Shown here: piece after piece, positions 22,196 to 47,700 of the stretch
How the letters are laid out: every line of letters begins with the position of its first letter
How positions within the stretch are numbered: position 1 is the first letter of the stretch
NCBI GenBank assembly: GCA_049510745.1
Contig: JBEKYR010000024.1
Span: forward strand, 1-64,000
DNA length: 64,000 nt
Direction of reading: 5' to 3'
From: Verrucomicrobiota bacterium
GTDB taxonomy: Bacteria > Verrucomicrobiota > Verrucomicrobiia > Limisphaerales > Palsa-1400
Program-made: the position numbers and the translations under genes
Notes under the pieces: generated by a model
What the model was told of the DNA's origin: nothing
The model's database searches: none
Seen by the model: only the letters and a program-made list of their open reading frames with translations

Positions 22196-24277
22196 ATGTC
22201 TGAGAAGTCGCGGCGTATTCCGAAAGGGAAAGAAGCCGCTCCAAGGAAGCGGTTGGATCAGAGATCCGATCCAAAACGCAGATACACCGTCCACCGCAAG
22301 TTTCCCGACCCGCTTGCCCGTCCGACCAAACGAACCGGAACGCACGCCGCACGTCTTCGCGACGAACAACTCGCCATGCCCTTCGTCGTGCCACAGCGCC
22401 TTGAAGCCCAACCGTTCCTGAAGTGGGCAGGCGGCAAGGCAAGTCTGCTCCGCCAGCTCGAGGAATTCTTTCCGCACGAGATCGACCGCTACATCGAACC
22501 GTTTCTTGGGGGCGGTGCGGTGTTTTTCCATCTCAAGCACCGTTTCCCGGATATGCGCGCGTTCCTGCGCGACAGCAACAAGGAACTCATCAATTGTTTC
22601 CGGGTTGTGCGCGATCGGCCGGTCGAGTTGATGCTCTTGCTCGATCATCACACCGAATCCTTTCACGAAAATGGTGCGGACTATTTCTACCGCATCCGCA
22701 AGCAGCACGACCTGACCGACGATCTCGCCCGGGCCGCGCGCACCATCTTTCTCAACAAGACCTGCTTCAACGGCCTCTGGCGCGTCAACGCCAAGAATGA
22801 GTTCAACACCCCCGTCGGTTCGAACAAGACTCCGAATCTTTACTCGCGCGAAAATCTGCTCGCCGCGTCCGCCGCCTTGCAGGACGCACAACTGGAGGCG
22901 CAGGACTTTCGCACGACCGTAGACGAAGCGCGCCGGGGCGATTTCATCTACTTTGACCCGCCATATCTGCCAATCTCCGCCTATTCGGATTTCAAACGCT
23001 ACACGCCAGACCAATTCCGCGAGGCCGACCAGGTGGAACTGGCGCGCGTCTTTCGCGAACTGGATGCAAAAGGCTGCCGCGTGGTCTTGTCTAATTCCGA
23101 ACATCCGCGCACCCGCGAACTTTACGCCGGGTTTTCCATTCACGTTGTCTCCGCGCCGAGATTCATAAATTGCAAGCCTGGCGGAAGGGGAAGTATCTCC
23201 GAGCTCGTCGTCGCGAACACCGGTGCCACAAAGCATCCGCAAGTGTTTTTCACATCGTCTGCCGAGCCAGAGTTTCCTGAAACGAAATTCATGGGGAGCA
23301 AACAACGCCTGCTCCCGTTCATTCTCAAGAGCCTTACCAAACTGAAATTCAATTCAGCGCTTGATGCTTTCTCGGGAAGTGGCTGCGTCGGGTACGCCAT
23401 TAAGCAAACTGGCGTTCGCGTTTATGCAAACGACTTCTTGAATTTCTGTTTTCACACAGCGCGAGCCACAATCGAAAATAATTCAACGATGTTGACAGAG
23501 GAAGACGTTGGCAAGCTGGTTCGTCTAAATTCATCTGCCCCAACATTTGTTCGCGAAACTTACAAAGATTTGTTCTTCGACGAAAAAGACTGTGAGTTCC
23601 TCGACAACCTGTGGGCAAATATCCAAGAGTTGCAATCCCCACTAAAAGCTTCGATGGCCCTGGCTGCCGCGTCCCGGGCCTGCATGAAGAAACGTCCACG
23701 CGGACTGTTCACATTTACTGGACACAAAGGTTGGGATGGACGTGTGGATCTGAAGCTGTCCATGCGCGAGCAATTCCTCTTCGCCGTCACAGCCTTCAAT
23801 GGAGCGGTGTTCTCAAATGGTCAGCAAAACAAAGCCTTCAACTCAGACGTGTTCGATTTGCAGCCTGATCTTGCTGATCTGGTTTACATAGACACTCCGT
23901 ATATCAGTCCGTATTCGGACTGCGACTACACACGCCGTTACCATTTTGTTGAAGGCTATTGTCGCTACTGGCGAGGCCTCGATATCACGGACACCACCAC
24001 GAAGAAGATTCGCTCTTACGAAACGGATTTCTCGACCAAAGCCCGCGCGCGCCAGGCATTTCAAAAGCTGTTCCACCATTTCTGCAAGTCAACGTTGGTC
24101 GTTTCGTATTCTTCCAATTGCATTCCAAGCAAGAGCGAAATGGTTGAGTTGCTAAAGAATGAGAAGTCGAACGTGACGGTTTGCGAATCGGCACACCGTT
24201 ATCACCACGGCAATCACGCTCACAAAGTTGGTGACAACAAGAACGAAGTCGTTGAATATCTTTTCATTGCTGAGTGA
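22196..24277 (+). CDS. Fused two-domain N6-adenine DNA methyltransferase (Dam/D12 class twice)
   Basis: Domain 1: LKWAGGK, EPFLGGGAV, FIYFDPPY. Domain 2: FMGSKQRL, DAFSGSGCV, LVYIDTPY. Start may be ATG 22376. Confidence 0.9.
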   Translation: MSEKSRRIPKGKEAAPRKRLDQRSDPKRRYTVHRKFPDPLARPTKRTGTHAARLRDEQLAMPFVVPQRLEAQPFLKWAGGKASLLRQLEEFFPHEIDRYIEPFLGGGAVFFHLKHRFPDMRAFLRDSNKELINCFRVVRDRPVELMLLLDHHTESFHENGADYFYRIRKQHDLTDDLARAARTIFLNKTCFNGLWRVNAKNEFNTPVGSNKTPNLYSRENLLAASAALQDAQLEAQDFRTTVDEARRGDFIYFDPPYLPISAYSDFKRYTPDQFREADQVELARVFRELDAKGCRVVLSNSEHPRTRELYAGFSIHVVSAPRFINCKPGGRGSISELVVANTGATKHPQVFFTSSAEPEFPETKFMGSKQRLLPFILKSLTKLKFNSALDAFSGSGCVGYAIKQTGVRVYANDFLNFCFHTARATIENNSTMLTEEDVGKLVRLNSSAPTFVRETYKDLFFDEKDCEFLDNLWANIQELQSPLKASMALAAASRACMKKRPRGLFTFTGHKGWDGRVDLKLSMREQFLFAVTAFNGAVFSNGQQNKAFNSDVFDLQPDLADLVYIDTPYISPYSDCDYTRRYHFVEGYCRYWRGLDITDTTTKKIRSYETDFSTKARARQAFQKLFHHFCKSTLVVSYSSNCIPSKSEMVELLKNEKSNVTVCESAHRYHHGNHAHKVGDNKNEVVEYLFIAE

Positions 24278-25293
24278 AGATTCCAAGCAAAGACGTAATA
24301 CAAGCGGATTCGCCCGAGCGAGTGATGGCGACTATTGATGCTGTCGCGCGAGGCGCGCGCGATGATAAAGACATCGCGGCAGCCATAGGCGGACTGGACC
24401 CGCGCCAGGGCAGATATTACCGGCGCGCGGCTGAAATCCTTGGCCTTATGGTGCGCGACGCCCACCGCTCAACCGTTACCCCGGCCGGCAAAGAATTCGC
24501 CAACGCGCAACATGCTGTGAAACAGGGGCTATTCATTCGTGCAGTACTCGGAGATCCACTTTTCCAACGCCTGTTTGCTTATCTGGAGTCCAAGGGAAAT
24601 TCCGGTGCTACGCGAGGCGACTTGAAAACGTTTCTTGCCCAAGTGGCGGACCTCGGTGCTGATAGCATGGTCAAACGCCGCGTGTCCTCCTACACGAGTT
24701 GGCTGGAGAAGCTCGGCCTCGCGAAGCCAGTAGGCAGTCGTCTGGTGCTCGACAAAGTCCCCGTCGCCGTGCCGATCGTCCGTTACGAATCAGACGAAGA
24801 ACCAATGTTCCCGATTCGTTACGATCTGAAGGAATATGAAGAGCAGGCGCAGCGGGTCGCAAGTCGCCGGGAGGCAATCACCTATTACATTGACCAAGCA
24901 AAGCGTGAACGCGCAACCACGAGCCACGAAACATTGGTGAAGCTCATGGCCGAGCGTTTGCGGCAGCGCGGCGCAATGCCAAAGGCGAATCGTTACATTG
25001 ACCTCTCCGTCCGGTGGGGAGACGCGGATTACTTGTTCGAGATGAAATCCACGACGGACGACAATCCGCACGCGCAGATTCGCCGGGGGCTTTCCCAGCT
25101 TTACGAGTACCGCTACATTCAGAATGTGAAGAAGGCAAAGCTCGTGTTGGTCATTGAGAATCCGCTGCCAAAAGAAAACCGCTGGATGGAAGACTATTTG
25201 ATCCACGACCGGGGAGTGCTGCTGGTTTGGGATGGCAACGGAAAGTTCGATTGTTCAACAGAGATTCGCGAGCAGCTTGAGTTCTTGAGTTGA
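24274..25293 (+). CDS. Putative restriction endonuclease: helical/wHTH-like N-terminal part plus PD-(D/E)xK nuclease
   Basis: GTGA overlap with the MTase; IDL...YLFEMKS...IRRGLSQLYEY catalytic-type motif. Confidence 0.7.
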   Translation: MKIPSKDVIQADSPERVMATIDAVARGARDDKDIAAAIGGLDPRQGRYYRRAAEILGLMVRDAHRSTVTPAGKEFANAQHAVKQGLFIRAVLGDPLFQRLFAYLESKGNSGATRGDLKTFLAQVADLGADSMVKRRVSSYTSWLEKLGLAKPVGSRLVLDKVPVAVPIVRYESDEEPMFPIRYDLKEYEEQAQRVASRREAITYYIDQAKRERATTSHETLVKLMAERLRQRGAMPKANRYIDLSVRWGDADYLFEMKSTTDDNPHAQIRRGLSQLYEYRYIQNVKKAKLVLVIENPLPKENRWMEDYLIHDRGVLLVWDGNGKFDCSTEIREQLEFLS

Positions 25294-28594: not shown

Positions 28595-30322
28595 TTACTG
28601 CGTCAGCGCACGGTAATAGCGATACGCGTACGCCGCGCCATCGGGGTCGGTAAAATCCAGGCTGCCAAAGGCCGGGGGGTTGGTGAAAATCGGCGTCCAG
28701 TTCATCAAATCGGTCGAAGCCTCAATGACGATGGCGCCCTGGCCGGCCAGATTTGTCAGGACGATGGATAATTGGCCGCCGCTGAAGGACAGAGCGCCGC
28801 CGCCGGTGGCGAAAGCAAGCGGCACGTTGGTCACGCTCAGGGTCACCACCGCGCTGGGCGTGGCGCCGTTGGCGTTGGTCAGAATGGCCTGGTAATACCC
28901 GGCGTTGGTGAGCTGCACGTTGGTCAGCGACAGGGTGTAATTGGTGGCGTTGGGAAGATTATTGTTGTCAAATTGCCATTGGCAGCCCGACGACCCGGTC
29001 GCGGCCAGCGTGAAACTGGCGTTGCCGTGCAGCGCAACCGCCTGGCTCACCGGCTGCGCCGTGATTTGCGGCGGCAATCCGATGCGGAAAAACGACCCCC
29101 AGCCGTTGGTGCCCCCGTAGTAGGCCGTCCCGTAAAAATTGCCGTCCGTGGCTTGCAGCAGTTCAATCGGAGCCGCGCCGTCCGTGTTGGTGGCCTCCAG
29201 GATGTCTTCCACGAAGTTGAAGGAATAAAGCGGGTTGAGCACGCCGCCCTGGGTGAATTGGAAAACCGTGCCCGAGCCGTTTTGCCCCCCGTCATAAGCG
29301 ACGCCGTAAAAATTCCCGTCCGCGCCCAGCACCAGGGTCCGCGGGCTGGCGCCGTCGTTATTGTAGTAGGGATAAGTCGAGGCCTGCGCGGTGAAGGAAT
29401 AAAGAGGCGTGAGAATTCCGTTGGTGGTGATTCTAAAAATCGTTCCGGTCCCGTTCGTGCCGCCCGCCGTGCAGGTCCCGTAGAGCTTGCCGTCATTGCC
29501 TTTGATCAGGGCCGCTTCGGGGGTGGCCCCGTCGATGCCGTTGGTAAACGAATAGATCGGCGTCACCTTCCCCGCCGCCGTGACCGCGAAGACGGTGCCG
29601 TAACCATTGGAACCGCCGGAGGTGGTGGTTCCATAAAGGATTCCATTGGCAGACTGCAGCAAGGAAGCCTTGGGCGTGGCGCCATCCACGCTGTTGGAAA
29701 AGGAGTAGAAAACGGTCATTTTCCCCTGGTGCGTGATTTGAAACACCGTTCCATAACCATTGGTGCCGCCGGCCTCGGCCGTGCCGTAGAAGTTTCCGTT
29801 GGTGCCAAGCACCAAGGCATAACTCGGCGTGGCGCCGTCCGCGTTGGTCAGCAGTGTTCCTTTCGGTTTCACTTTTGCGAACGAATATAACGAGTTGAAC
29901 GTTCCGTTGGAGCTGATGTTAAATATGGTCCCATAACCGTTGGTGCCGCCAATCTGCGCCGCCCCGTAAAACAAACCGTTGGTTCCCTGAACCAGCGCGG
30001 CAGACGGATTGGCGCCGTCGGTGCTGTACTTGAACGAGTAAAGCGGCTTCATCGCTCCGGACGTCTTGAGCTGGCAAATGGCGCCATACTCGTTCGTCCC
30101 TTCGTTGACCCCGCTCACGTAGAAATTTCCGTTGGTCCCTTGCATCAACCCGGCGGGGTTTCCGCCATCGCCCGCGCTTGGGACGCCGCTGAAGGCGTAC
30201 AAGACAGTCAGTGTTTGCGCCGGGGCGCCCAGCGCCGCCAGCCATAACGCAGCCGCCAACACCAGTCCTTGCTCGCCTGCGTTGCGGGAATCGGCCCATT
30301 TTCCTGTTCGATTAGTTTTCAT
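28595..30322 (-). CDS. Secreted protein with GloVer-type tandem repeats, Ig domain and C-terminal ASTxLxxW...YYRA domain
   Basis: Repeats of DGAxP...GxFYG...GGTNGYGTVF; PQITAQP Ig domain; signal peptide after MKTNRTG. Confidence 0.88.
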   Translation of the reverse strand: MKTNRTGKWADSRNAGEQGLVLAAALWLAALGAPAQTLTVLYAFSGVPSAGDGGNPAGLMQGTNGNFYVSGVNEGTNEYGAICQLKTSGAMKPLYSFKYSTDGANPSAALVQGTNGLFYGAAQIGGTNGYGTIFNISSNGTFNSLYSFAKVKPKGTLLTNADGATPSYALVLGTNGNFYGTAEAGGTNGYGTVFQITHQGKMTVFYSFSNSVDGATPKASLLQSANGILYGTTTSGGSNGYGTVFAVTAAGKVTPIYSFTNGIDGATPEAALIKGNDGKLYGTCTAGGTNGTGTIFRITTNGILTPLYSFTAQASTYPYYNNDGASPRTLVLGADGNFYGVAYDGGQNGSGTVFQFTQGGVLNPLYSFNFVEDILEATNTDGAAPIELLQATDGNFYGTAYYGGTNGWGSFFRIGLPPQITAQPVSQAVALHGNASFTLAATGSSGCQWQFDNNNLPNATNYTLSLTNVQLTNAGYYQAILTNANGATPSAVVTLSVTNVPLAFATGGGALSFSGGQLSIVLTNLAGQGAIVIEASTDLMNWTPIFTNPPAFGSLDFTDPDGAAYAYRYYRALTQ

Positions 30323-30563
30323 GGTAATAGCTCTCCACTGGCGGGGAGGATTTCCGAAAGGCCCTCTGCCCGCGCTTTGTTTCGGCTGAACAACGATTCC
30401 CGCAGCCCGTGCCCATACTCTTACCATACTTGCTCGGGCGTGTCGAGAAAAACTTCGCCGGCCCCCCGGCGCATCCCGGTGTTTTGGCAACCCCATAATC
30501 CATGGAGGGGGTGGACATGCCAAAGCTCACGTCGCTCGCGGTTGACGCTGCGCCCCCACAATG

Positions 30564-31661
30564 TTAGCGCGGGATCGCAGTCTGCAAACAGGCCGTCTCC
30601 GCAGGGGTGAGCGGGATGGTTTGGGGCCAGTACTCGTTTTTCATGCGCCGGGCGCCGTCGCCAACCACCAGATAAACCAGGTGGTGCTTCCGTGCTTCGT
30701 TGTGCCGGGCGCAGATCACATCCGTCTCGCTCCAACCGGTTGGAACGGCCACGGACGGGTACATCGCCAGAACGCCGCGGACGCCCTTCATGTCCCGCTT
30801 GTCCATCTCCGCGTAGTAGTGATCCTCGGCGTGGCGAGACCACGTTTCCGCGTACGGAAATTCCAGAGTCTTCCGCACAACCGTCCGGTCCCACCATGAC
30901 AACTCGACCATGTTCAAGGTCTGCCGCAAGCCTTCCTTTTGCAGCAGCCCGCGGGCGGTCTTGATAAAGGCGTGCATGCCGGCTGTCTCTGCGCCGTAAT
31001 CGCCCGCTATCGGGCCGAGGGTATCCCAATGGACGCCGTCGAAACCGAGTTGTTTTATCGGGCCGACCCAGCGTGAAACCATAAGCTTCGCCCAAGCGGT
31101 GTTGGCAAAGTAAGTCGGGAACCGGGGTTTCTCGACGCGGGGTGGGTGCCAGTGCCATTGGCCCTTGGCATCGCGCAATTTCCGTATATCCCGCCGGGGG
31201 TCTTCGAGGTCCTGCTCCTCCGCGCCGACGGCCTGCACATACGCCCAAGCCCGCCCACCCTGTCGATGCACCTCGTCGATGCTGACCTCTATTGTATGGC
31301 GGCTGATTGGGCTGCGGCGGAAATAGGGATCAGTCCAATCGGCGCCTCGCACCGGAGTGGAATAATCGGCAAACCAATCGTAAAATTGAAATTCGCGGAT
31401 GGCATACTCCCGAGCCATCGTGGCGATCCGGGCGCGGATGGCGGCTTCCGGTTGCGGTCCCAGAACGGCACTGGAGATGAAACCATATTCCCCTGCCAGA
31501 CCGTAAAACTCGGTGGCCGAGGGGGGTTGGTTGCCGGCGGGCGCGTCGGCGGCGTGCGCGAAAAGGTCCCCGGCGCCGACCATTGTTGCGCCGCGGGCCA
31601 TGACTTCAAGAAAACGGCGGCGATTCATCTGCCCGAATGCGAAGCGTCTTGTGGCGGACAC
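30564..31661 (-). CDS. Tat-exported glycoside hydrolase family 66-like protein (catalytic barrel only)
   Basis: RRRFL Tat motif; QFYDW and GFDGVHWDTLG motifs. Confidence 0.65.
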   Translation of the reverse strand: MSATRRFAFGQMNRRRFLEVMARGATMVGAGDLFAHAADAPAGNQPPSATEFYGLAGEYGFISSAVLGPQPEAAIRARIATMAREYAIREFQFYDWFADYSTPVRGADWTDPYFRRSPISRHTIEVSIDEVHRQGGRAWAYVQAVGAEEQDLEDPRRDIRKLRDAKGQWHWHPPRVEKPRFPTYFANTAWAKLMVSRWVGPIKQLGFDGVHWDTLGPIAGDYGAETAGMHAFIKTARGLLQKEGLRQTLNMVELSWWDRTVVRKTLEFPYAETWSRHAEDHYYAEMDKRDMKGVRGVLAMYPSVAVPTGWSETDVICARHNEARKHHLVYLVVGDGARRMKNEYWPQTIPLTPAETACLQTAIPR

Positions 31662-31793
31662 CTCGTTAAATCTTTCATGCTCAAAGTGGGGAAATTAAAT
31701 GGGTCTGGCAACGATATAATCCCGGATCCCCCTCGGGATTGTATATTTCGCAAACCATAGACTTGTTGACTGTGTTTGCATTTCGTGCCCGCT

Positions 31794-31919
31794 TTATTTC
31801 TTGTTTTTCTTCGGCGGTGGCGTGGCGAGCATTTTTCGCAGCACGTCCTCAACTTTCATCCCCGCCAGATTTAGCGGCGCGATCTTCTCGCGCACTCGCT
31901 TTTTACTTTTTCTTTTCAC
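31794..31919 (-). CDS. Small basic protein inside the IS, 41 aa (MKRKSKKRVREKIAPLNLAGMKVEDVLRKMLATPPPKKNKK)
   Basis: Translated by hand: GTG 31919 to TAA 31794, downstream of the transposase. Confidence 0.5.
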   Translation of the reverse strand: MKRKSKKRVREKIAPLNLAGMKVEDVLRKMLATPPPKKNKK

Positions 31920-31998
31920 GGATTCGCTTTCTTCCCCATCTGATCTTGGGTGGTTTGGCTTTTACCAGTCAATCGTAATGCCGTCTGCATCGGTTGAG

Positions 31999-32964
31999 TC
32001 AAACTACTTGGCGATATGTCAGGCGTTTGCCTTCAACGGATTCAATCGCCTTGACCATCCTCGCGCCGTCCGAAATGCCGCGTGTGTTCCACCGAAATTC
32101 AAATTCGCCCGCGTATTTCGGAAGGTGTTCACGGCTCACATGATGCCACGAACCCACAACCCCGCGCTTTAACAAGCTGAAAAAGCTTTCGCATCCGTTG
32201 ACCCCCGATTTTGTTCCGTCCGCATTTTGGCGGGTGTACTCAAAATTGCTGTGGTTCACAATATCGTGCCGGGCATAGTCCTTGAACCGGCCCCGGTAAA
32301 CCCCGGAGTCATCCGTGTTCAGGGTGGCCGATTTGGAAACAAAAGCGGTGATGATTTTCCGAAGATTTAACTGGGTGACATTCGGGACAACTTGTGTCCG
32401 CACGGCCCCACCGCGTTGAACCAGGGCAATGACCGGCGTTTTTCTCACGACCTTTGTTTTCATGTCGCCCTTGCCGCCAACGTAGGTTTCGTCACATTCC
32501 ACCGTGCCTGTGAGCGGCGGTGCGTCGGAATCATCCAACCCCATTGCAAAACGGATGCGATGCGTCATAAACCATGCGGTTTTATACGTGACTTTCAGCA
32601 TCCGGTGCATCTGGTGTGAACTGGTGGACTTCTTGCCGGAACACAGGATAAACACCGCCAGCAGCCATTTGCTGATCGGGATATGGCTGGCCTCAAAGAC
32701 CGTGCCAACGGTTACGGTAAACTGTTTCCTGCACGCTCCGCACTTGTAAACGCCCTTGCGGGCCGGGGCTTTGCTAGTGGCTTTTGGCTCAAGCCGATAA
32801 ATCGGCTTTGCCTTGCCGTCATTCTGGCAGTGAGGACACACCGGGCCATTGGGCCAGCGGAGCGATTCCAGCAATTCGCGCGCCTTGTCGTTGTCGCTGT
32901 ATTGCTGCGCAAGCTCAACCAGGTTTAGCTCGTTCGCATCCAATTCTGTTTGTTCTGTCTTCAT
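31999..32964 (-). CDS. IS1595-family DDE transposase
   Basis: RWPNGPVCPHC...YKCGACRKQFTV zinc ribbon; YKTAW; VECDETYVGG, TD, VNH, ESFFSLLKRG, EFEFRWN. Confidence 0.96.
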   Translation of the reverse strand: MKTEQTELDANELNLVELAQQYSDNDKARELLESLRWPNGPVCPHCQNDGKAKPIYRLEPKATSKAPARKGVYKCGACRKQFTVTVGTVFEASHIPISKWLLAVFILCSGKKSTSSHQMHRMLKVTYKTAWFMTHRIRFAMGLDDSDAPPLTGTVECDETYVGGKGDMKTKVVRKTPVIALVQRGGAVRTQVVPNVTQLNLRKIITAFVSKSATLNTDDSGVYRGRFKDYARHDIVNHSNFEYTRQNADGTKSGVNGCESFFSLLKRGVVGSWHHVSREHLPKYAGEFEFRWNTRGISDGARMVKAIESVEGKRLTYRQVV

Positions 32965-32978
32965 AAACCTTTATTTGT

Positions 32979-33899
32979 TTATTGCGACTTAAAACCCTCG
33001 AAGCTTGAAATTCCACTTTCGTTAAACATCTTTGCCAGTTTCTCAGCGGTTCTTGGTGTCGCTTTGGCGATGAAATCTTTCCATAGTTTCTTGACCTTAT
33101 CGCTCTCTTTGCTCAGGAGGCGCTCAATAGTTTTGTTCCGGCGCTCTTTTTCGGACTGCATTATTTTTTCGAGTTTATTAGACCATCGCGGCAGTTTGTT
33201 TACTGTCGAAATAATCACCAAACTAAGCCCGAAAGCACTAGGATGGATTGTCTGCGAATTGGGGTCTTTCATTTTTTCCGATGCGCCTAAATCATTGAGT
33301 ATCAGGCCAACCTTAGCTGGAGAGCTGCAATACGCATCATGCTTGCAGACGGTTTCTATAATATAGGCAGCAAGCGTAAAGCCCAGCCCCTTATCCATGT
33401 CTCGTTTTGTGTGTTCGCTCAACAGATAACTTCCAAGATTAGCACCACAGCCTATTGCAGAATACCAGGAAGTCTCTTTATCGCATCGCGCAACGGCCAG
33501 ATCGACAGTGAATATGTAAGGCCGACTATCGAAATAATATGCAAGCATGAGTTCAGACTGCAATTCATCTTTCCTGATTAAATCCTGTAATTCTGACATC
33601 GTACAATTGCAGTATTGCTCTTTGAGTTCGCGCTTCACCTGGATCATTGCAGAACGCGCCATTTCAGCAGGCATCCTATAATCGGTGATTTGTGTGGTTG
33701 TGGCTGTTTCTCGCAGCATTTCAATGGCGCGTGCAGAAGTTCCGGCATGGCCTGCTTGTGCAATTAAAACAGAGCGATCAGCGAATTTTATAGAAGTGAT
33801 TTTTTGGGCATCTGTGCGCTTCATTCCTTCGCGGGTGGTTTGGCTATCGCCCGCCAAAACAATCGCGTCTTTACAAATAAGACCAATAATTATTGTCAC
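32979..33899 (-). CDS. Proteasome-beta/Ntn-hydrolase-like protein (IS passenger)
   Basis: GTG start gives (M)TIIIGLICKDAIVLAGDSQTT with Thr1, Asp17, Lys32; AQAG and AIGCG motifs; low GC. Confidence 0.8.
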   Translation of the reverse strand: MTIIIGLICKDAIVLAGDSQTTREGMKRTDAQKITSIKFADRSVLIAQAGHAGTSARAIEMLRETATTTQITDYRMPAEMARSAMIQVKRELKEQYCNCTMSELQDLIRKDELQSELMLAYYFDSRPYIFTVDLAVARCDKETSWYSAIGCGANLGSYLLSEHTKRDMDKGLGFTLAAYIIETVCKHDAYCSSPAKVGLILNDLGASEKMKDPNSQTIHPSAFGLSLVIISTVNKLPRWSNKLEKIMQSEKERRNKTIERLLSKESDKVKKLWKDFIAKATPRTAEKLAKMFNESGISSFEGFKSQ

Positions 33900-34148
33900 G
33901 CGCGTCTTTCGTTTTGGTGATTCACGGAAGCTGTTCATGGTCAGAATGAAGAAATTATTTGGGTTTGGCAACTATATAATCCCGATCCCCCTTGTCACCA
34001 GTACTGGTGACTGGCGGCTTTTCCGGGATGAAGTAAGCTGTGGACAGTTGACGGGGCGAAATGCGGGTTTCCGTGTGTGTGTCAGCGTAATGTTCCGCGG
34101 CGCTGCCCTGGTTGACAAAACGATTTCAAAACGTTTGTTCTCAGTCAG

Positions 34149-34185
34149 AGAGGCCGGGCCAAAAACCCGGCCTCTTTGATTTTTT
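34149..34185 (+). terminator. Rho-independent terminator-like hairpin
   Basis: Perfect 10-bp stem AGAGGCCGGG/CCCGGCCTCT followed by TTGATTTTTT. Confidence 0.75.
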
Positions 34186-35598: not shown

Positions 35599-35733
35599 GG
35601 CGGGGGGAGGCATCACGGGGCGCTGGGCGGAAATGGCGCCTCCAGACGCTTGAAAAACCAGGGCGGAGCCGGGCGTTTTCCAAGCATTTTGTGGTTGATT
35701 TTTCAGGAGGAAAACATACTCTCTTGAACCGTG

Positions 35734-38700
35734 ATGCCTGCCAAAACCTTTTTATTCCAATTGTTCGGTCGCTGCCGCGGTCCGCTTCATCGCTCTCCGT
35801 CGCGCGGCCTTGATTCACTCCTCCTGTTCGGTTGCCTGCTGTTTGCCGGGCCGCTTTACGGCTTCGACATCGTGGCTGACTTCAGCACCAATGCCAATCC
35901 CAACGGCGTCTGGAGCTACGGCTGGGAAACCAACGCCGGCGGCCCCTTCCAACTGATGGTGTCCAATCAAACTGCCGATTCGGGCTTGCTTGTCGGCTGG
36001 CAAAATGGCCTGACGCAGCCGAACTGGAGCGGTTTGCTCAAGTATTTTGGCACCAATGCCGACTCTCCCTCGAACCCGAATTATCCCGATGACCTGCATC
36101 TGGACCCCCAGTCCCACGCGGTCATGGTCCGCTTCACCGCCCCCAGCAACGGCACTTACCAGATTGACGGGCTGTTCCGCCTCGTTGACACCGGCACGCG
36201 CCCGCATGATCTCCTGATTCTCTCCAACTCCATCGCCACCAATTTTCACGTCCTGACCGCGTACGGCCAATTCGGCGCCCAATTCCCGTTCGCCTTCACC
36301 TCCGCGTTGAACCAGAACGACACCCTGGATTTTATGGCAAGCCTCAATGGGAACTTTGCCTATCTCTCAACCGGCCTGAAAGGGTCGATCACACCGGCCA
36401 ACGGCATCACCTACACCTGGACCGGTGCGGCTTCCGGCGATTGGTCCAATCCGGCCAATTGGACTCCCCAAAACACCCCCGGCGGATCGGACACCGTTCT
36501 CATCGGCACCGGCGGTTCCCCCATCGTGAGCAACGCCGCCAGTGTCGGCGCCGTTATCCTGAGCAGCGGCGCGACGTTGAACGCCCAGGCGGGCCTGACC
36601 ATCTCCAATCTGTTCAATTGGGACGGCGGCGGTGTTGCGGGCGCATTGACCATTGGCGCCAATGCCACGCTGAATTTGAACAGCCCCGCCACGAATACTC
36701 CCTACGGCCAGCTTTCCATGACCGGGGCAACGATCATCAACAATGGCACGGTGGTGTGGGATGGCGGCACTCTGGTGGCCGATTCCAACACGGTCGTGAT
36801 CAACAACGGCCTCTGGCTGGCCCAGATGGACGACCTGTTTTCCAATCCCAACGGCGGCAGCGCGGTTTTTGACAATTACGGCACGTTTGCCAAGTCGCCC
36901 ACAACGGGCGCCAGCACCTTTTCCGGCGTCGCTTTTAACAACGCCGGCGCGGTCACGGTCGGCAGCGGCGCGGTGAACTTCGGTTCCGGGGGCGTCTTTG
37001 GGGGAACGTTGCTGGCGACCAACGGCAGCACGATTTTGCTTTCCGGCGGCGGCGTGTTGAGCGGGGTTTTTACAGCGGCCCCCGGCTCCAGCGTGGTGCT
37101 CAACGGCGGGACCTTCACCAACGCCAAGGCCGCCTTCGCCGGCGGCGGCAGTTCTTACATGACCAACGGCATGCTGCTGTTGACCAACGATGTCAGCCCG
37201 AACCTCGTCCTGGCCGGCGGCTTGGTTTTTTTGGGGCCGCAATTCCAGGCCTCGGGCGCGATCACCAATTTGACCCTGGCGGGCGCGACGTTGACGGGCA
37301 CCAACACGGTGGCGGGAACGCTGGCCTGGCAGGGAGGCGAAATCGACGGGGTGCTGACCATTAACAACGGCGGAGTGCTTGATTTGAACGGATCGGCGAC
37401 CCTGGTCCAGACGGCCGCGTTGACCAACGCCGGGCAGATTTTCTGGCGCGGCTCCAGCGATTGGTATCTGTACAACCCCGGCAACGCCAGCGGCGGCTTG
37501 ATCAACAACCTCGCCGACGGTGTCATCGACGTGTTCTGCGACCAGACGATGTACAATCAGTCCGGGTCCCCGTGGATAGACAACAGCGGGATTTTCAGGA
37601 AATCGCAGGGGAGAGGCGTCACCAAGCTCAACGTGCTCTTTACCAACGCCGGCGTGGTCGAAGTGCTGAATGGCTCGCTGACTTTCAACCAGCCCGGCGA
37701 TTTCGGCGGCTCGTTTAGCGCGGCCAACGGGGCGGTCTTCAACTTCAACGGCGGCGGCGTCCTGAGCGGCTCGTTTTCGACCGGCTTCGGAGCGACCCTT
37801 AATCTGGCCGGCGGCGCGTTCTTCCCGACGTCCGGGGTTTCCTTCGGCGGAGTGGGGACCAACGAGCAAACCGGCGGGACACTGACGTTGTTGAACGATG
37901 TGATCCCGAATTTGATCGGGAACGGCGGCTCGGTGGAGTTGGCGCCGGGTTTTCAAAATGGTTCGATCAACAATCTCACCTTGAACAACCAGACACTCGA
38001 GGGGGCCAACACCGTCACCGGGACGTTGACCCTCGGTGGCGCCTCCACCGTCGCCGGGCCGTTGACGGTCGCGTCCAATGGAGTGCTGAATATCGACGGG
38101 AATTCTTATGCCCAGGCCAACCTGACCAACGCCGGAACGGTGAACTGGAACGCCGGCTATTTTCAGGTGCAGTACGGCAGCGGCATCTACAACCTCCAGG
38201 GAGCCGCCTTCAACATCAATCTGACGTCCGGCAATTATATGGACAACAATTACGGCTCGGAGTTCTTCAACAATGCCGGACTGCTCCAAAAATCCACCAA
38301 CAGCAGCAGCGTTACCATTTATCTGATCCTGACCAACAGCGGGACGGTGGATGTGCAAGGCGGCACTTTGGTTTTCGGCAACAGCCCCTCGTATCCGGCC
38401 CCGCTGCTCGGCGGCGTCTTCCTGGCGGAGACCAACGCCCAGATCAACTTCAACGGCGGCGGAGCGCTGACCGGCCTCTATAACGCAACCACGACCGGCG
38501 TCATCGAACTCACCGGCGGCGCGTTTACCTACGGCGCCATTCCGACCTTTGCCGGGGCGGGCCTCAGTGAGATGACGGGAGGCTCCCTGACGCTGGTCAG
38601 CAACGTCATTCCGAACCTGGGCATCCAGGGAGGAACCATTACTCTCGGCCCCTCCTTTCAGGGCGGCACGATCACCAACCTCAATCTCAACGGGGCCACC

Positions 38701-41700
38701 CTGGTGGGAACCAATATCGTCACCGGCGTGTTAAGCATGAGCGGCGGCGATCTCTATGCGGGAGCCTTGACGCTGGCTCCCTATTCCACCTTGAATTGGG
38801 GCGGCGGCTACATCGAAATCCCCCTGACCGTGCCGGCCAACGCGGTCATGAATATAACCGGCTCCTCCTCCTACTATACCTACCTTTACAGTCCGCTCAG
38901 CAATGCCGGAACAGTCAATTGGACCGGAGGGGACATCTATCTGGAATCCAGCGTCGCGATCAACAATCTTCCCGGCGGCACGTTCAATTCCGAAGGCGGC
39001 TACGTGATGGGGTATTCGTCTTACTACGGCGGGTCTTTCATCAACGCCGGGTCCTTCATCCAAACCAACACTTCCGGCACGACTTATCTCGAACTGCCCT
39101 TCAACAACCTTGCCACCGTCAACGTGGCCAGCGGAACCCTGGCCTTTTACGACTACGGCAGCACGATCGGCGGCAATTATCAGGCCGGGCCGGGAGGCAC
39201 GATTGATTTTGGGAGCGGCGGCTATCTCACGGGCAACTACACGGCCCTGCCCGGCGGCACCATTAACCTGTCCGGCGGCGTGTTTAGCAACGCGCCCTCC
39301 ATGCTTTTGACGGGCGGCGGCGGCTACCAGCTCGACGGCGGCACCATCACCCTGGTCAGCAATGTGATTCCCAATCTTCAGTACACCTACGGCACTGTCA
39401 ACCTCTCCCCGTCTTTTCAAGGCGGCGCCATTACCAATCTGACCCTCAATGGGGCGAGCCTTTCCGGCGCCAACGTGGTGACCGGGACACTGACCATGAA
39501 CGGGGGCGATATTTCCGGGCCGCTCACCGTGGCCGGCAACGCGGTCTTGACCCTGACGGGGCCGAACACGGTTTACATTTACAGCGCGCTGACCAACGCG
39601 GGCACGATCGACTGGATGGGCGGCAGCATCTACCTCGATTCCACCAACGCCCTCTACAACTTTGAGGGCGCGCTCTTTAGCATTCAATGCGACCAATACC
39701 TCTACAGTTACGAGGTCTATAACTATTACACGGGAACCTACACTTACGCCCCATTCATTAATTACGGAACGATCACCAAGACCAATGCCACCGGCACCAC
39801 GTCTTTTGACGCGCCGCTGAACAACGCCGGAACGGTGAACGTGGACTCGGGTGTTATTAATCTCAACGAGGGCGGCGGTTTGACGGGCCTCTATTACACG
39901 GCGCAGGGGGCTGCCTTCAACCTCACCGGAGGGTCTTTCACCAACACTCTCGCCAACACGCTGTTCACCGGCCCAGGCTCCTACGCGATAACCGGGGGCA
40001 GCCTCTATCTGGCCGGCGACATGATAACAAACCTCCTCCTGGAGGGCGGCGATATCTATCTCCTGCCCGGCTTTCAAGGCGGCACGATTACGAACCTGAC
40101 CTTGAACGGAGCCATCCTCGAGGGGGCCAACACCGTCACCGGCGTTTTGAACATGACGGGTTACAGCGATTTCTACGGGCCGCTGACCCTGGCTCCAAAC
40201 TCCGTCTTCAACTATGGCGGCGGCTACTTCGAGTATCCGGTCACTATTTCCAACAATGCCGTCATGAATATCACCGGGCCGAATTACACGGAGTTCGAGG
40301 CGCCCTGCACCAACCAGGGGACGATCAACTGGACGGGGGGAACCATCTATCTTTATTCCTCCCTCTACAATCTGTCCAACGCCGTCTTTAGCATTCAGTG
40401 CGACCAGGACCTCTATGATTCGGGAACTATTTACAACGCCGGCCTGATCGTCAAGACGAATACGTTCGGCGCGACTTACGAGAACGGGTTCATTGCCAAT
40501 ACCGGCACGGTCGATGTCGAGAGCGGCCAGATGCTGTTCGGGGAATCCGATGGACTCATCGGGGGCACCTGGCAGGTGGGCATCAGCGGCCTCAACAGCT
40601 ACGGACAGTTTGTATTCGAGAATGCAGCCGTGCTCACCAACGTGCTCAATCTCAACCTGGAAAACGGCCTTTTGCTGGCCCCGGGCGATTCTTTTACGCC
40701 CGTCACTTACTACTCGGAAATCGGGGTTTTCTCGGCCGTCAATTTCCTCCCGCCGCAAGGCGCAAACACCACCGTGAATTACACCCCGACGAACCTGACC
40801 ATTGCGGTCAGCAGCGTGGTCGGTCCGGTCATCAGCATCAACAGCCCGACCAACTACCAGACCTTCTACGGTGAAGCCCCCATTCCCATCCAGGTTGCCG
40901 TGTCCGACGCGGACACCACCGTTCTGATGGTTCAATACTACCAGGGAAACACCTTCATCGGCTCCTCCGTTTCCGGTCCGGCGTTCCCCATCATGTGGTA
41001 CGGCGCTTCGGTGGGCCTTTACACGTTGACGGCTGTGGCGACCGACGCGGCGGGGGCCGTGACCACTTCCGCTCCCGTTCCCATCGTGGTCTATCCCTTT
41101 ACCGAGGGCAGGAATTATGTTTGGACAGGAAACAGTTCGGCCAATTGGTCCGATTCCGGCAACTGGTCTCCCGCAGGCGTCCCCGGCGCCGGGGATAACG
41201 CCTTTCTCAACAGCGGCGTCATCAACCTGAACGACGGTTTCAGCGTCAACAATGTCATCCTCAACGGCGGCGTTCTGGGCGGCACGGGATTCCTCACCGT
41301 CAATGGCGGATTGGTCTGGACGGGCGGCGTGCTCAACAGCGCCATCACCGTCGGCCCCGGGGCCACGCTCCAGATCGAGGGACTCAGCCCGCTGACCCTG
41401 TCCAACGCCACCCTGATCAATCTCGGAACGGCCTTTTGGATGCAAGGCGACATTCTGGCTGTCAATGGGGTCATTGCCAATGAGGGTTCCTGGACGGCGT
41501 CCGGCGGCAGCAATGTGACGTGCCTCGCCAGCTTCCTCAACAGCGGCTTGGTCGAGGCCACCAACGGCGCCACCCTGAATCTGAGCGGCGGCGGAACCCT
41601 GGACGGCTCGTTTACGGCGGCGGCGGGAGCGAACATTAACTTCAGCGACGGCAGTTTCGACTATGGCGCCAATCCCGTCTTCGGCGGAAATGGGGCGGTG

Positions 41701-44700
41701 AGCCTGACCGGCGGGGGTTTGACCCTGACCAACACCGTCAGCCCCAACCTGGCGCTGGCGGGGGGCAGTCTGTTCCTGGGACCGGCCTTCCAGAATGGAG
41801 GCGCCATCACCAACCTGACGCTCTCTGGTTCCGCGTTGTCCGGCAGCAACGTCGTCACAGGCGTGTTGAACCTCACCGGCGGCAGCATCTACGGCCAGTT
41901 GACCGTGACCGAAGGCGGGTCCCTCAATTTCTTCGGCCCGCAATACATGTACCTGGAATCTGCCACCCTGCTCAACTTCGGCCGGGTCAACTGGCTCGGC
42001 GGCGAAATCTACGGCGACTCCGACGCCATCACCAACAACAACCTGTGGCTCATCGAATCGGACAACGACCTCGACCTCTACCAGTCCACGTTTGTCAACA
42101 ACGGCACGGTCCAAAAACTGGATTCTGTCAACACGACTTACTTCTCCCTCGACGCCTTCGTCAACAACGGAACCGTCGATGCGGAATCGGGCCACATCAG
42201 CCTCAACGCTTCCGGCGCGCTGGCCGGCGCTTACCAGACGGGAAGCAGCGGGGAAATCGATTTCGCGGGCGCGAACATGACGCTGGCGCAGTTCCCGGCC
42301 TTCACCGGCAACGGATCGTTCGACCTGACCGGTGGCATGCTGACCATTCTCAGCAATGTGCCGCCGGGCTTCGCTCTGGCGGGCGGGACGGTGGCGCTGG
42401 GTCCGGGTTTTCAGGCCAACGGCGCCATCACCAACCTGACGCTGGCCGGCGCGACCCTGGCCGGCTCCTACACCGTCACGGGCGTCTTGAATTTCGCGGG
42501 CGGCGCCATGAGCGACTCTCTGACCATCGCCGCCGGCGCCACTCTCAACCTCATGGGGCCGAATGAATTTGATGTGATCTCGGGCGCGCTGACCAATCTC
42601 GGCACGGTGCAATGGTCCGGCGGCGATATCGGCATGGAGGACGGAACGGTGATCGTCAATGATTACCAGTGGGTGGCGCAATCCGACAATATGCTGGGCT
42701 ATTATTGTGATTGCATCACCAACGCGGCCTTCATCAACAACGGCGCGTTCCTTAAGCAGGGCACGACCGGATACACTGAAATTAAAGGCATCGCTTTTAA
42801 CAACGCGGGCACGGTGGACGCCGAAACTGGCACGATCGATTTTGAGGATGGCGGCCAGATCGCCGGAACCTACAACACGGCGGGCCAGGCGGCCGTTGAT
42901 TTCAGCAGCGGCGCTTACACCGCCGCCGCGCCCCCCGGCATCACCGGCGGCGGGACGGTGCAACTGGACGGCGGCAGTCTAGCGCTGATGCAGGATCAGA
43001 TTCCCGGCCTGCTGCTGGCCGGCGGCACGGTCACCCTCGGCCCGGCTTTTCAAAGCAACGGCGCCATCACCAACCTGACCATCCAGGGCGCCACCCTGGC
43101 CGGCAGCAACCTGGTCACCGGCACGCTCAATTTCGGTTACGGCAACATCGATGGGTGGCTGACCGTGGCCACCAATGGGACGATGGTCATCGGTTCAAAC
43201 TATCCGGAGTACTCCCTTTATTTGGAATCCGGCGCCTTGACCAACTTCGGCACCGTCCTTTGGTCGGGCGATTACATCGAAGGAGGCCTCACCACACTCT
43301 TCGTCAATAATGGATTGTGGCTGGCGCAGGGGGATAACGATTTGGAGTATTATTATTACAATACGTCCGCCTTCCTGAACAACGGCGTCTTTCGCAAACT
43401 GGGCGGCACCGGTTACACTTACGTTTCCATACCGTTTATTAACAACGGTCAAGTCGATGCCGAAACCGGCACGGTTTATTTCGACGATGGCGGCCAGATC
43501 GGGGGCAATTACATCAGCGCGCCGGGGACGGCCATTTATTTTGCCGGCGGCAGTTTTACCAACGCCACGCCGGCCGGCTTTGCCGGCCCCGGCGCCGTCG
43601 AATTATACGGGACTCTCACCCTGCTCTCGGATCAGATCCCCAGTCTGCCGCTCAACAACGGCACGCTCATCCTCGGCCCGGCTTTCCAAAACAACGGCGC
43701 CATCACCAATCTGACCTTGAGCGGCGCCGCTCTCCAAGGCTCCAACCTGGTGACGGGAACGTTGAACTGGACTGCGGGCTACCTGTCCAGTTCGCTCACG
43801 GTGGCGCCCGGCGGCGTTTTGAACATCTCCTCCACCGCCCAAAAAGAACTCTACATCAATTATTATAATTCATCCAGCCTGGTCAATTTCGGCACTGTCG
43901 TCTGGTCCGGTGGAGAATTGATCGGCACCGCGCAGACCGCCGTCACCAACAACGGCCTCTGGCTGGTTCAGACCGACAGCGACCTCTACTCCTATTCGCA
44001 GAACCTGATATTCGTCAACAACGGCACGTTCAGAAAGACAACCACCGCCGGCACGACCTACTTTTACTACGTTACTTTCATCAATTCCGGCACGCTGGAC
44101 GTTGAATCCGGCACCGTCAATTTCCCCTCCTATTCCGCTTACGAGCAGACCGTCGCCACTCTCAGCTTCGGCGCCTCCGCCCCCAGCCTCACCGGCCAGT
44201 TGACTCTTTCCAGCGTTGTGAACCTCGACGGCGCGCTGACGCTCAATCTCCTGAACGGTTACACGCCCGTCGCCGGCGACGTGTTGAAGCTGATCACCTA
44301 CCCGTCGGCCGCAGGCTCCTTTGCCAATTTCAACCTCCCGCCCCTGGGCGCCGGCTTGAACTGGCAAACCGAGGTCGGCTCCGCCGGCGTCCTCCTGCGC
44401 GTGGTGCGGTCCCTGGCCTCCGCCAATACTCTGGGCCTGAGCGGGACCGTCACCGACATCAATCATCAACCCATCGCCGGCGCCATCGTCTATGCCGCCA
44501 TTACTTCCGCCACCGCCACCAATTTGATTCAAAACGGAAGTTTTGAATCCCCGAACATTGGTTCCACTTATTTGACCTACGGCCCCGGCTCGACCAATAT
44601 CCCGGGCTGGACCGTGACCGGGTCGCCCGGCTCGGAGGTGGGCATCGCCGGTTATTATTGGGAGGACGTCCCGGCCGAGGATGGCAACCAGTACCTTGAC

Positions 44701-47700
44701 GTGACCGGCGACCGCGTGCCAGGCGGCGGCATCACGCAAACCTTTTCGACCATCGCCGGCGCCTCTTACGACCTGATCTTCTATCATGGCTCGTATAACC
44801 ATTACGGCATCAACAACGCGCTGGGCGTGACCATTGCCGGCAATTCCTATGCCTATGGCGAAACTTCAGCCGGCAACGGCAGCCTGGATTGGCGCCAGGT
44901 CGTCATTCCCTTCGTTGCCACATCCAATTTCACCACCCTGGCGTTCACCAACCTGACCGGCTTCTATTCCGAGGACAATTTCGTGGACAACGCGCAGGTG
45001 GTTCCGCCGGATTTCAACCGCGTGCTCCAGACGGTCACCGCCTCCGACGGCTCCTACCAAATCCCGCTGGCCAATGAAACCTTCCAAGTCGGTGTTTCCG
45101 GTCTGGCCGCCTTCGGCTACAATGACATCCCGGCCGGGCCGGTGGCGATGAACGGCACAAATCAAGTGACCAACTTCGTCGCTACTCCCTTGAGCTTGAC
45201 CAACACCGGGCCTTTCACCATCACCACCTCGGCCAGCCCGCCGGACGCGGGAACAACCGCCGGCGACGGAACAAATTACGCCAACGGCGCCTCGGTCACG
45301 GTGACCGCCACTGTGACCAATGCGGGTTTCGTGTTTTCCAGTTGGACGGAAAACGGCTACCCGTTTAGCACCAACGCCAGCTATACCTTCACCGCCACAC
45401 GGAACCGCGCCCTGGTCGCAAACTTCTCGCCGCTCTTCTCGATCTCCACCGCCGTCTATCCCTCCGGCGGGGGATCTGTTGTCGGCGGCGGCACTTACGC
45501 CAGCAACGCCTCCGTCACGGTTACTGCCACGCCCAATGCCGGCTTCGCCTTTACCAGTTGGACGGAAAACGGCGTCGTGCAAAGCACCAGCGCCAGCTAC
45601 ACCTTCACCGTCACAACCAACCGCACTCTGGTGGCTAACTTTTATACGCCCGTTGTCATCACGACTGCGGCCAGCCCGCCGGCCGGGGGAATAACCGGCG
45701 GCGGCGGCACTTACGCCAGCGGCGCCTCCGTCACGGTTACAGCCGCGGCCAACGCGGGTTTCGTCTTTATCAGTTGGACGGAAAACGGCGTCGTACAAAG
45801 CACCAGCGCCGGCTATACCTTCATCGCCACAAACAACCGCGCCCTGGTCGCGAACTTCTTGCCGTTCTACTCGATCTCCGCCTCCGCCAATCCACCCGGC
45901 GCGGGAACCATTGGCGGCGCCGGCACTTACGCCAGCAACGCCGCGGTCACGGTTACAGCCACGACCAATGCGGGTTTCTTCTTTGTCAGTTGGACGGAAA
46001 ACGGCGTCGTGCAAAGCACCGACGCCAGCTATGCCTTCACCGCCACGCGGAACCGCGCCCTGGTCGCAAACTTTTTGCCGCTTTATCCCGTTTTGCTCAA
46101 CATCTCCGCCAACCTCCCCAGCCCGGTCCCGGCGACGACCAATTTTGTTCTGCGCCTCCAGTTCGACCGGACGATGAACACCGCCGTCGCGCCGACCGTC
46201 TTGTTGACCAATGCCGCCGCGGGCGCCTCGCAGCCGGTCGTGGCCGCCAACGGCTCCTGGAGCACTGTCTCCAGTTCCAACGACACCTATTCGACGCCCC
46301 CGATCACCATTGCCTCGAACATGGATGGCACCGTGCAGGTGTGGGTCTCCGGAGCGACCGATTACCGGGGCGACCAAATGGTGCTCACCAACCCCACCAG
46401 CTTCATCGTGCGCATCTCCCCGCCTGTCGTGGCCATTTCCGCGCCAGCCAATGGTTTCTCCTGCACAACGACCGACACCTTCAATTTCACCGCCGGCGCC
46501 AGTTCCGGCTTTGGCATCGCCAGTTTGAGTCTCTATGCCAATGGGACCAACCTGGCGGGAACCACCGGCCCCACCAACTTCACTGCGACCGTAAGCGATC
46601 TCGCCGCCGGCAGCTATCGCCTGACCGCTGTGGCGGTGGACAACCGCGGGTTGGCCAGCACTTCAAGAGTGACCCACATCACCGTCAACATCCCGGGAAC
46701 CTATTTGATCGACTTCGAGGGCGTGGACGCTTCCACCAACGCCGTTTCGGGCGATCTGCTGGCCAATTACCTGTCCGGCTATGGCATCACGCTGGCCAAT
46801 GTCACCAGCAATACGACCGTGGCCGTGCAGAATGACATGAACATCGCGCGCGGAAACCTGACCGTGGCCCAATCCGGCGATAACCTGCTGACCCAGAGCG
46901 GCGCCAACGGGTTGGTTTCCTACACGTTGGTCTTCAACCAGCCCTATAAGAGCATCAGTTGGTGGCGCACCGAGCTGCTGGCCGGCCCCGGCATCGCCAC
47001 GCCGGCCTGGCAGGCCACCGCCTACGACGCCAACAGCAACCAAGTCGGCCTGGTCCGCGAGCAGCAGGTCTTCAGTTCGGTCAATCTGCCGGCCAAACAA
47101 TTCTCCCTCTCCGCTCCAGCCATCATGTCGGTGACATTTACCGGCAACAACAGCATCGGCTCGTTCGATAACCTGCCGCTGGATGACTTGCTGCTTTCGA
47201 TTTTCCCCAGCAACGCCATCAGTGTCAGCCTCAGCGCCAACAACACCAGTCTCTCCGCGCCAGGCCAGGTGACTTTGACCGCGCAAGCCTCCGAAGTGAA
47301 CGCTTCGATCAGCGAAATCGACTTCTACGAAGGCCAAAACCTGATTGGCGGCGCCTTTGGCTCTCCTGCCGCGCTGGCCTTGCAGAACCTGGCCCCGGGG
47401 ACTTATTCCTTCACCGCCGTCGCCACCGACAACAACGGGGCCGTGCGCAGTTCCACCCCGGTCACGGTCACCGTCAACACTAGCTCCGGCGTCAGCGTCA
47501 TCAACTTCGATTCGCTGGACACTTCGTCCGGCGCGGTCGGCGGGGCGGACTTGTCCAACTATCTGGCCGGCTTCGGCCTCACGCTCACCAACGTCACCCA
47601 GGGCACGCGCCTGGAAGCCGACAAGGGCAACGATCTCTCCCGCGGCGCCCTGGCTGATCCGTCTTCGCCGCTCAACCTCTTCACGCAAGTCGGCCTGAGC

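Follow-up and report, generated by a model that had tools for sequence, protein, structure and literature searches.

Introduction

Among prokaryotic proteasome-like proteins, 22 groups without an assigned function were described by Fuchs et al. (2021; PMC8665760). In the sections of that paper covered here, informative genomic context was reported for none of the groups, no propeptides were described, and uncapped-proteasome roles were proposed for homologues lacking partners. Insertion sequences that carry passenger genes are an established class within IS1595, where they are known as transporter IS (tIS), for example MTnSag1 and tISCpe8 (PMC5704250, in the part considered). Here we analyzed a 64,000-nucleotide stretch of a Verrucomicrobiota genome (the window), in which a proteasome-beta-like gene is carried by an IS1595 element. 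That the gene encodes such a protein and that it is transposon cargo can together be taken as practically certain. Among the openly accessible papers searched (subscription papers, including Siguier 2009, lay outside the coverage), none linked proteasome-like proteins to IS1595 and none described the target of this IS1595 lineage. The initial annotation had put the system forward as a candidate for an undescribed one. For the target site and the genomic surroundings this holds, whereas the protein is probably catalogued already (PMC8665760, as far as its group descriptions go) and passenger-carrying IS1595 elements are known. What these searches did not find in print is the combination of proteasome-like cargo with IS1595, and the target preference.

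Organization of the IS1595 element

The element is complete and extends from 31734 to 33984 (2,251 bp). Its 24-bp terminal inverted repeats, located at 33961..33984 (minus strand, cargo side) and 31734..31757 (plus strand), match at 19 of 24 bases, and the 8-bp target duplication AGGGGGAT flanks the element on both sides (33985..33992 and 31726..31733, both minus strand). The ends resemble what we take to be the end motif of the IS1595 subgroup ISNwi1. The transposase gene (31999..32964, minus strand) encodes a 321-aa IS1595-family DDE enzyme (NF033547, 178 bits against a cut-off of 75), which was assigned to a lineage here called clade A. The quick tree used for transposases separates clade A from a clade B, the two being about 35% identical. 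A 40-aa basic ORF lies 3' of the transposase gene (31797..31919, minus strand). Of the 25 clade-A transposases examined, 12 are followed by the motif of this ORF, and 7 of 19 clade-B transposases by another peptide.

Another copy of the inverted repeat begins 1 bp past the target duplication (31701..31724, minus strand) and is probably the end of an older, stacked element. Because this second end is stacked beside the first, a repeat finder initially returned direct repeats only. In the region 30564-31724 (minus strand), a 17-codon ORF comes after this end, and its stop codon overlaps the ATG (31628) with which a Tat-signal GH66-like gene (PF13199) starts; the old end may now drive this gene. 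A third, weak element-end motif, possibly due to chance, was located at 30483-30501 upstream of the gene for a 642-aa secreted repeat protein. In an independent peat run, one contig includes all of 30200-34027, at a depth equal to that of the flank. Neither an empty site nor a circle junction was detected in four sets of contigs, a kind of data that cannot show absence, and no RNA records containing the element were listed.

The cargo gene and its start codon

The cargo gene is located at 32979..33899 on the minus strand. The ORF (33899-32979) has 306 codons, begins with GTG-Thr, and would yield 305 aa after Met removal. It ends 14 bp before the transposase ATG at 32964, and its GC content is 44.5%, compared with 60.3% for the genome. 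The earlier picture of a low-GC ORF inside the IS ends, on the transposase strand and 14 bp upstream of it, was confirmed. Across 86 distinct loci the codon before Thr1 was GTG in 74 and ATG in 12, while GTG accounts for 25% of the internal Val codons. Since a start codon always directly precedes Thr1, no autoprocessing is needed, and the GTG start with Met removal proposed at first is supported. An obligate propeptide was rejected on the identity of this codon and on the 28 of 86 loci that have no standard in-frame start further upstream.

In the window, an in-frame ATG at 33938 precedes the GTG by 13 codons (33900..33938, minus strand) and could give a longer isoform with a 14-residue basic leader. 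Of 85 loci, 13 had an in-frame stop within the 45 upstream bases; stops in the other two frames were found in 43 and 50, and shuffling of these bases gave 47 +/- 4, kin loci not being independent in these counts. Translated in the cargo frame, the 45 bases are rich in Lys, Arg and Pro. The open state of the leader frame makes it likely that some family members also have a second isoform with a blocked N-terminus. In clade-B loci such as L028, L029, L033, L085 and L094, the distance from element end to GTG mostly varies in 3-base steps (63, 69, 72, 75, 87) despite the absence of a standard upstream start.

Fold and active site of the cargo protein

The cargo protein scored 45 bits with PF00227 (gathering cut-off 22.4) and matched PHROG 1040 (8.5e-9). 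Its AF2 model (pLDDT 95.1) has the proteasome-beta fold. The top rank in VIA-align was a 20S beta chain (Z 22.6, rmsd 2.7 over 197 residues), followed by Anbu (Z 21.6), mycobacterial PrcB (18.9), HslV (18.4), BPH (16.7) and connectase (11.4). The Ntn sandwich is present in the model with H1-H4: residues 52-66 and 76-95 form H1 and H2, an extra helix (101-110) follows H2, and helices 153-163 and 170-187 are joined by a 6-residue loop with no H3/H4 insertion. The C-terminal tail had been described as basic and helical. The 43-residue helix at 236-278 agrees with this, but a strand at 227-231 precedes it, so that the tail is not purely helical; searched alone, it returned only atlas leads scoring under 0.9. 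A three-copy homo-oligomer prediction scored 0.02 and carries no weight either way here.

The family comprises 554 clusters at 50% identity (E <= 0.001). A profile search of a word-indexed database added almost nothing. No fusion forms were seen among the longer proteins, which is weak evidence. Conservation was analyzed in 130 near-full-length members drawn from 169 family proteins. The window protein has Thr1, Asp17, Lys32, Gly49, Cys150, Asp187 and Cys190. Thr or Ser occupies position 1 in 129 members, and Asp17, Lys32 and Gly49 are present in 128, 130 and 127, respectively. These answer to the N-terminal Thr/Ser, Asp17, Lys33 and Gly47 expected of PF00227 proteins. Cys190 is found in 128, Asp187 in 92 and Cys150 in 73, with Ser at the last position in another 19. 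The active-site residues first read from the window, together with its GCG motif (G149-C150-G151), were therefore as claimed, and so was the Ntn fold. The original list of residues and parts had not included Cys190 at the Ser169 position, the ATG at 33938, the 40-aa ORF or the target palindrome.

The catalytic residues are retained across an overall identity of about 25-30%. This speaks against an inert passenger under no selection, a reading to which broken copies and a 265-bp remnant holding only the start of the gene would otherwise lend themselves, and which we find hardly credible.

In pairwise registers, Cys150 falls on the Ser129 position of 20S beta subunits and Cys190 on the Ser169 position. 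The Ser129/Asp166/Ser169 set is linked to the Thr1 amine (Huber et al., PMC4792962, in the part covered), and this relay is not kept in the family, with Cys at the Ser129 position in 73 of 130 members and at the Ser169 position in 128. Such changes alter the amine relay, and connectase shows that the fold can ligate (PMC8665760, in its section on that enzyme); both would suit a connectase-like ligase or another non-proteolytic amidase. The model, however, keeps H1 and H2, has no S3/S4 lid and gave Z 11.4 with connectase against 22.6 with the beta chain. A ligase or amidase is accordingly very improbable, and the connectase-type ligase suggested at first is unlikely on architecture.

Insertion beside a host palindrome

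A perfect 18-bp palindrome, likely the binding site of a regulator, is located at 33994..34011 and is the landmark of clade-A insertions. At the clade-A junction, the palindrome is followed by one A and then by the 8-bp duplication. Among the loci fetched through the protein, which were not chosen by site, 15 of 23 distinct clade-A ends lay at the exact palindrome junction; a degenerate palindrome was present at one of the other eight ends and none at seven. A sample collected through the transposase displayed the exact junction in 9 of 17 clade-A elements. The remaining eight included one palindrome with five mismatches, one element stacked behind another end, one clean exception (L249) and five that were truncated by contig ends or visible at one end only. 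No palindrome junction was found in 12 elements of intermediate lineages or in clade B, and the target duplications of both are AT-rich. With two mismatches allowed, the junction pattern occurred in 26 of 401 genomes, a few of them being chance matches at that tolerance, and the reversed control gave none. The bare palindrome was detected in 26 of the 31 genomes of the taxonomic family and in 17 of the 18 that are near-complete; most have two to four copies. Being widespread in family genomes, the palindrome is a host feature. A preference of clade A for it as a target is very probable. L123, a seeming second-site insertion, was treated as a chimera or recombinant because its 8-bp duplication is identical and the sequence switches from C5 to C24 inside the repeat.

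Behind the palindrome, a conserved small-RNA-like unit (34046..34181, plus strand) points away from the element. It consists of a -10-like box, about 135 conserved bases and a strong, terminator-like hairpin. Three copies are present in the host genome (G000), the further two lying in C5 near 123004 and in C2 near 270051, and two of the three are empty of any element. None of 200 shuffles folds as well as the unit (z -3.25), and the consensus structure of the unit displays weak covariation, with 4 of 15 pairs changing on both sides. Searches of Rfam gave only sub-threshold hits. The unit is unannotated and occurs in multiple copies and in most genomes of the family. The finding points to a multi-copy small RNA and a regulator in soil Verrucomicrobiota.

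The site is occupied by elements with the cargo gene, by elements with other cargo (L198, L204, L208, L211) or by cargo-less remnants, and the transposase may be either way round. Ends are stacked in the window, L067, L247 and L251. Two remnants at the palindrome are of MITE size, L137:1528-1742 (215 bp) and L021:1396-1660 (265 bp), and both have intact ends and duplications. At the element end of the window, a candidate hybrid sigma-70-like promoter (33971..33998, minus strand; 10 of 12 positions) would take its -35 from the palindrome edge and its -10 from the inverted repeat. It faces the cargo gene, and one such site is within chance expectation for the region. Insertion at a fixed offset beside an 18-bp palindrome offers testable target selection by a simple DDE IS, which is of interest for safe-harbour integration.

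Distribution of the family and exchange between carriers

The survey of genomic context covered 93 distinct loci retrieved by way of the protein; five distant outgroup loci were left out. A locus counted as linked to IS1595 if an element end lay no more than 230 bases upstream or an IS1595 transposase no more than 3 kb away. By this definition 63 loci were linked to IS1595 and three to IS1-type elements (66 of 93 together), and 27 to neither. In the 42 loci with adequate flanks the numbers were 32, two and eight, respectively. End patterns were found in 25 of 5,000 random control windows. The family is a habitual cargo of IS1595 and IS1-type elements. In L009:1269-3154 and L010:1320-3122, family members overlap the start of IS1-type transposases, which constitute a third carrier lineage. 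Acidobacteriota members of the family exist in the atlas and are under-sampled here, since the search patterns were derived from the closer half of the family.

The gene was present in 12 of 31 genomes of the host's taxonomic family (E <= 0.001, fragments included) and in 11 of 401 genomes of the order (1e-20), and in none of 300 other genomes of the phylum (1e-12). A tblastn search gave no match in 50,697 phage and 72,556 plasmid records, which probably hold few of this lineage. The single viral-contig match of the family itself lies within an IS. The host genome has four divergent copies, and the other three are 26-34% identical to the window copy and have no adjoining transposase. One is encoded between a rolling-circle Rep (PF23343) and a tyrosine integrase, in a small integrated element (L001:4448-10374; G000 C5 109447-115376). 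The second overlaps an HNH gene, and the third lies behind a clade-B end. The host genome also has another complete IS1595 element (L004:4883-7802; G000 C35), with a 40% identical transposase and unrelated cargo of no assigned family.

The cargo phylogeny, a FastTree of about 205 residues in which deep nodes are weak, did not follow that of the transposases, and copies from clades A and B interleave. L067 has a transposase 84% identical to that of the window and a cargo protein only 36% identical, while two clade-B elements carry cargo 46-49% identical to the window protein. When 401 genomes were searched through the transposase, 6 of the 17 clade-A elements proved to contain the gene, as against none of the 12 intermediate-lineage elements fetched, eight of which have matched target duplications; the flanks of most clade-B hits were too short to judge. 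The cargo, swapped between lineages and missing from complete elements, is thus exchangeable and dispensable for transposition.

These data bear on the possibility that the cargo serves the element, trimming or removing the transposase or the 40-aa peptide and so releasing the strand-transfer complex, limiting transposition or favouring retention. Optional accessory genes of this kind have a precedent in TnpB of IS200/IS605 and IS607. The IS linkage of the loci fits such a role, as does the location of the lone viral-contig match in an IS. The cargo is also the first gene inside an inverted repeat, and it lies directly upstream of the transposase and co-oriented with it in the window, L067, most clade-B elements and the IS1-type L009 and L010. 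Yet it does not track the transposase, it is head-on to it in at least six complete clade-A elements or loci (e.g. L035, L059, L078, L212, L213), it is absent from most clade-A and all intermediate-lineage elements fetched, and three host copies adjoin no transposase. We therefore regard an element-serving function as possible but doubtful. The regulation of the transposase proposed in the initial annotation was not established, for the same lack of co-variation and the many complete elements without the gene.

Neighbouring genes and the host proteasome

No alpha subunit (PF00227) or ATPase was encoded among 139 neighbouring and cargo ORFs scanned, and no HslU was found among the neighbours, in line with the stand-alone gene described at first. 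Related elements carry a SocA/Panacea antitoxin (L208), a methylase-Mrr fusion (L036) and a ClpP-like protein (L072). The last, L072:6936-7505, is a ClpP-like protease and the second cargo of an element that also contains a family member. Copies not assigned to IS1595 neighbour HNH (L002), PIN (L100) and superinfection immunity genes (L010), or Panacea together with methylase-Mrr (L093). When 37 co-cargo proteins were scanned, only HNH, methylase and trypsin-like domains were matched and most ORFs had no family. No partner, sensor or substrate gene recurred, and none of the 130 members matched PADLOC, so the anti-phage effector role first suggested is not established.

Elsewhere in the window, 22196-25293 (plus strand) encodes a double adenine methylase of the D12 class and, after it, a DUF7226 protein whose C-terminus is likely a nuclease; the two probably form a type II restriction-modification pair. 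A 5,790-aa secreted protein with Ig-like repeats is encoded at 35731-53103 (plus strand).

The host genome has genes for Pup, PrcB, a divergent PrcA-like protein and PafA, and for an ARC-like ATPase accompanied by Dop (G000 C5 125315-128460, C30 31206-34743). The cargo might enter this 20S proteasome as a substitute beta subunit, or poison it. Against this, PrcB was found in only 9 of 18 cargo-positive genomes, compared with 53 of 121 in the order, which led us to reject dependence on the host 20S proteasome; the cargo also shows 19% similarity to the host PrcB and has an extra helix at the pore-loop site. A role with the host proteasome is unlikely to explain the family in general, and an alternative subunit in particular has very little probability.

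A general stress peptidase has somewhat more in its favour. It would be ATP-independent, would clear damaged proteins in the manner of an uncapped proteasome, and might be switched by the two cysteines and the palindrome regulator. The roles proposed for partnerless homologues (PMC8665760, in its discussion of these), the nearly invariant Cys190 and the candidate hybrid promoter created at the palindrome by insertion are consistent with it. A housekeeping benefit, however, should fix the gene, which is instead patchy (11/401), very divergent and often broken, with split frames at several loci, and the host already has Pup-proteasome genes. We consider this explanation improbable.

Possible function of the cargo

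The reading we favour, as a serious possibility somewhat short of an even chance, is that the cargo is a stand-alone, ATP-independent Thr protease of narrow specificity, carried as conflict cargo to the benefit of the host against phages or mobile DNA. It is suggested by the extreme divergence, the multiple unlike copies per genome, the exchange among carriers and the co-cargo (Panacea, methylase-Mrr, HNH, PIN, ClpP-like). It is weakened by the lack of PADLOC matches, by co-cargo that mostly has no family match and by the tie to insertion sequences (66/93 loci). Defence genes are usually far less tied to insertion sequences than this family, and with so strong a tie an optional element helper fits almost as well as conflict cargo.

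For a conflict protease, the following steps can be proposed. The promoter at the element end would drive the cargo gene, and Met removal would expose the amine of Thr1, with no autoprocessing needed. Activation of Thr1 would fall to Lys32 and Asp17, while Cys150 and Cys190 would stand in for the proton-relaying serines at its amine and might confer redox sensitivity. In the longer isoform Thr1 would be blocked by the basic leader, which could lower activity. A host regulator probably binds the palindrome, and the site may act as an intergenic safe harbour at which cargo-bearing elements come, go and stack.

A wider and tentative model, doubtful as a whole, is that this IS1595 lineage homes to the operator of a host regulator before a multi-copy small RNA, builds a promoter from that operator as it inserts and keeps the site as a dock where cassettes rotate. 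Its main cargo would be stand-alone proteases of the proteasome-beta kind, which would combine a Thr/Cys/Cys site with an on/off design based on two starts and serve defence or element maintenance. If true, this would give the first function for an orphan proteasome branch and a DDE IS guided by a host DNA-binding protein. In any case, the compact three-gene element gives a functionless proteasome-like group a context that is directly testable.

Comparison with known systems

Like the tIS elements MTnSag1 and tISCpe8 (PMC5704250, in their published outline), the element has an IS1595 DDE transposase, repeats of about 25 bp, an 8-bp duplication and passengers. It differs from that outline in its proteasome-like passenger and in that insertions of its clade mostly lie at a constant distance from a palindrome of the host.

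Of the proteasome-like proteins compared, 20S beta (PF00227; TIGR03634; TIGR03690) is the closest in structure and has the catalytic triad and oxyanion glycine in common with the cargo. Identity with 20S beta was ruled out, since the cargo reaches 38.2 bits with TIGR03634 against a cut-off of 224, has no alpha gene beside it and no Gly(-1) propeptide, has Cys in place of Ser129 and Ser169, and is mobile. Anbu (PDB 5LOY, 5NYG) aligned over the greatest length, 218 residues, and both proteins have a long C-terminal helix (H5), but the cargo has no conserved operon and has the extra helix after H2; a single-sequence phmmer search retrieved no Anbu chains at E <= 1. HslV, BPH and connectase have the fold in common with the cargo, whereas its C-terminal strand and helix are absent from all three. 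The HslV models scored 13.1-13.6 bits against cut-offs of 137-158, and these scores together with the absence of HslU excluded HslV. BPH was excluded as well (Z 16.7, no such strand and helix). Connectase has lost H1/H2 and carries a two-helix S3/S4 insertion, the reverse of the cargo model on both points, and was likewise set aside. None of the outcomes named at first as refuting was seen: an Ntn fold is predicted, the active-site residues are conserved and the gene has no clean fit in a characterized family. The first interpretation is supported in part.

The protein probably belongs to one of the 22 functionless groups of Fuchs et al. (2021; PMC8665760). PMI-2 to PMI-6, as described there, were excluded because the cargo has no H3/H4 insertion and merely a 6-residue loop. 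The PHI group, as far as its published description goes, has a Thr1/Asp17/Lys33 core, a helix after H2, no H3/H4 insertion, a long C-terminal helix and no ATPase partner, as does the cargo, and was reported in PVC bacteria. The modelled architecture of the cargo fits PHI by description, so that the cargo may be a member, and departs from that description in its recurring IS context and its optional leader.
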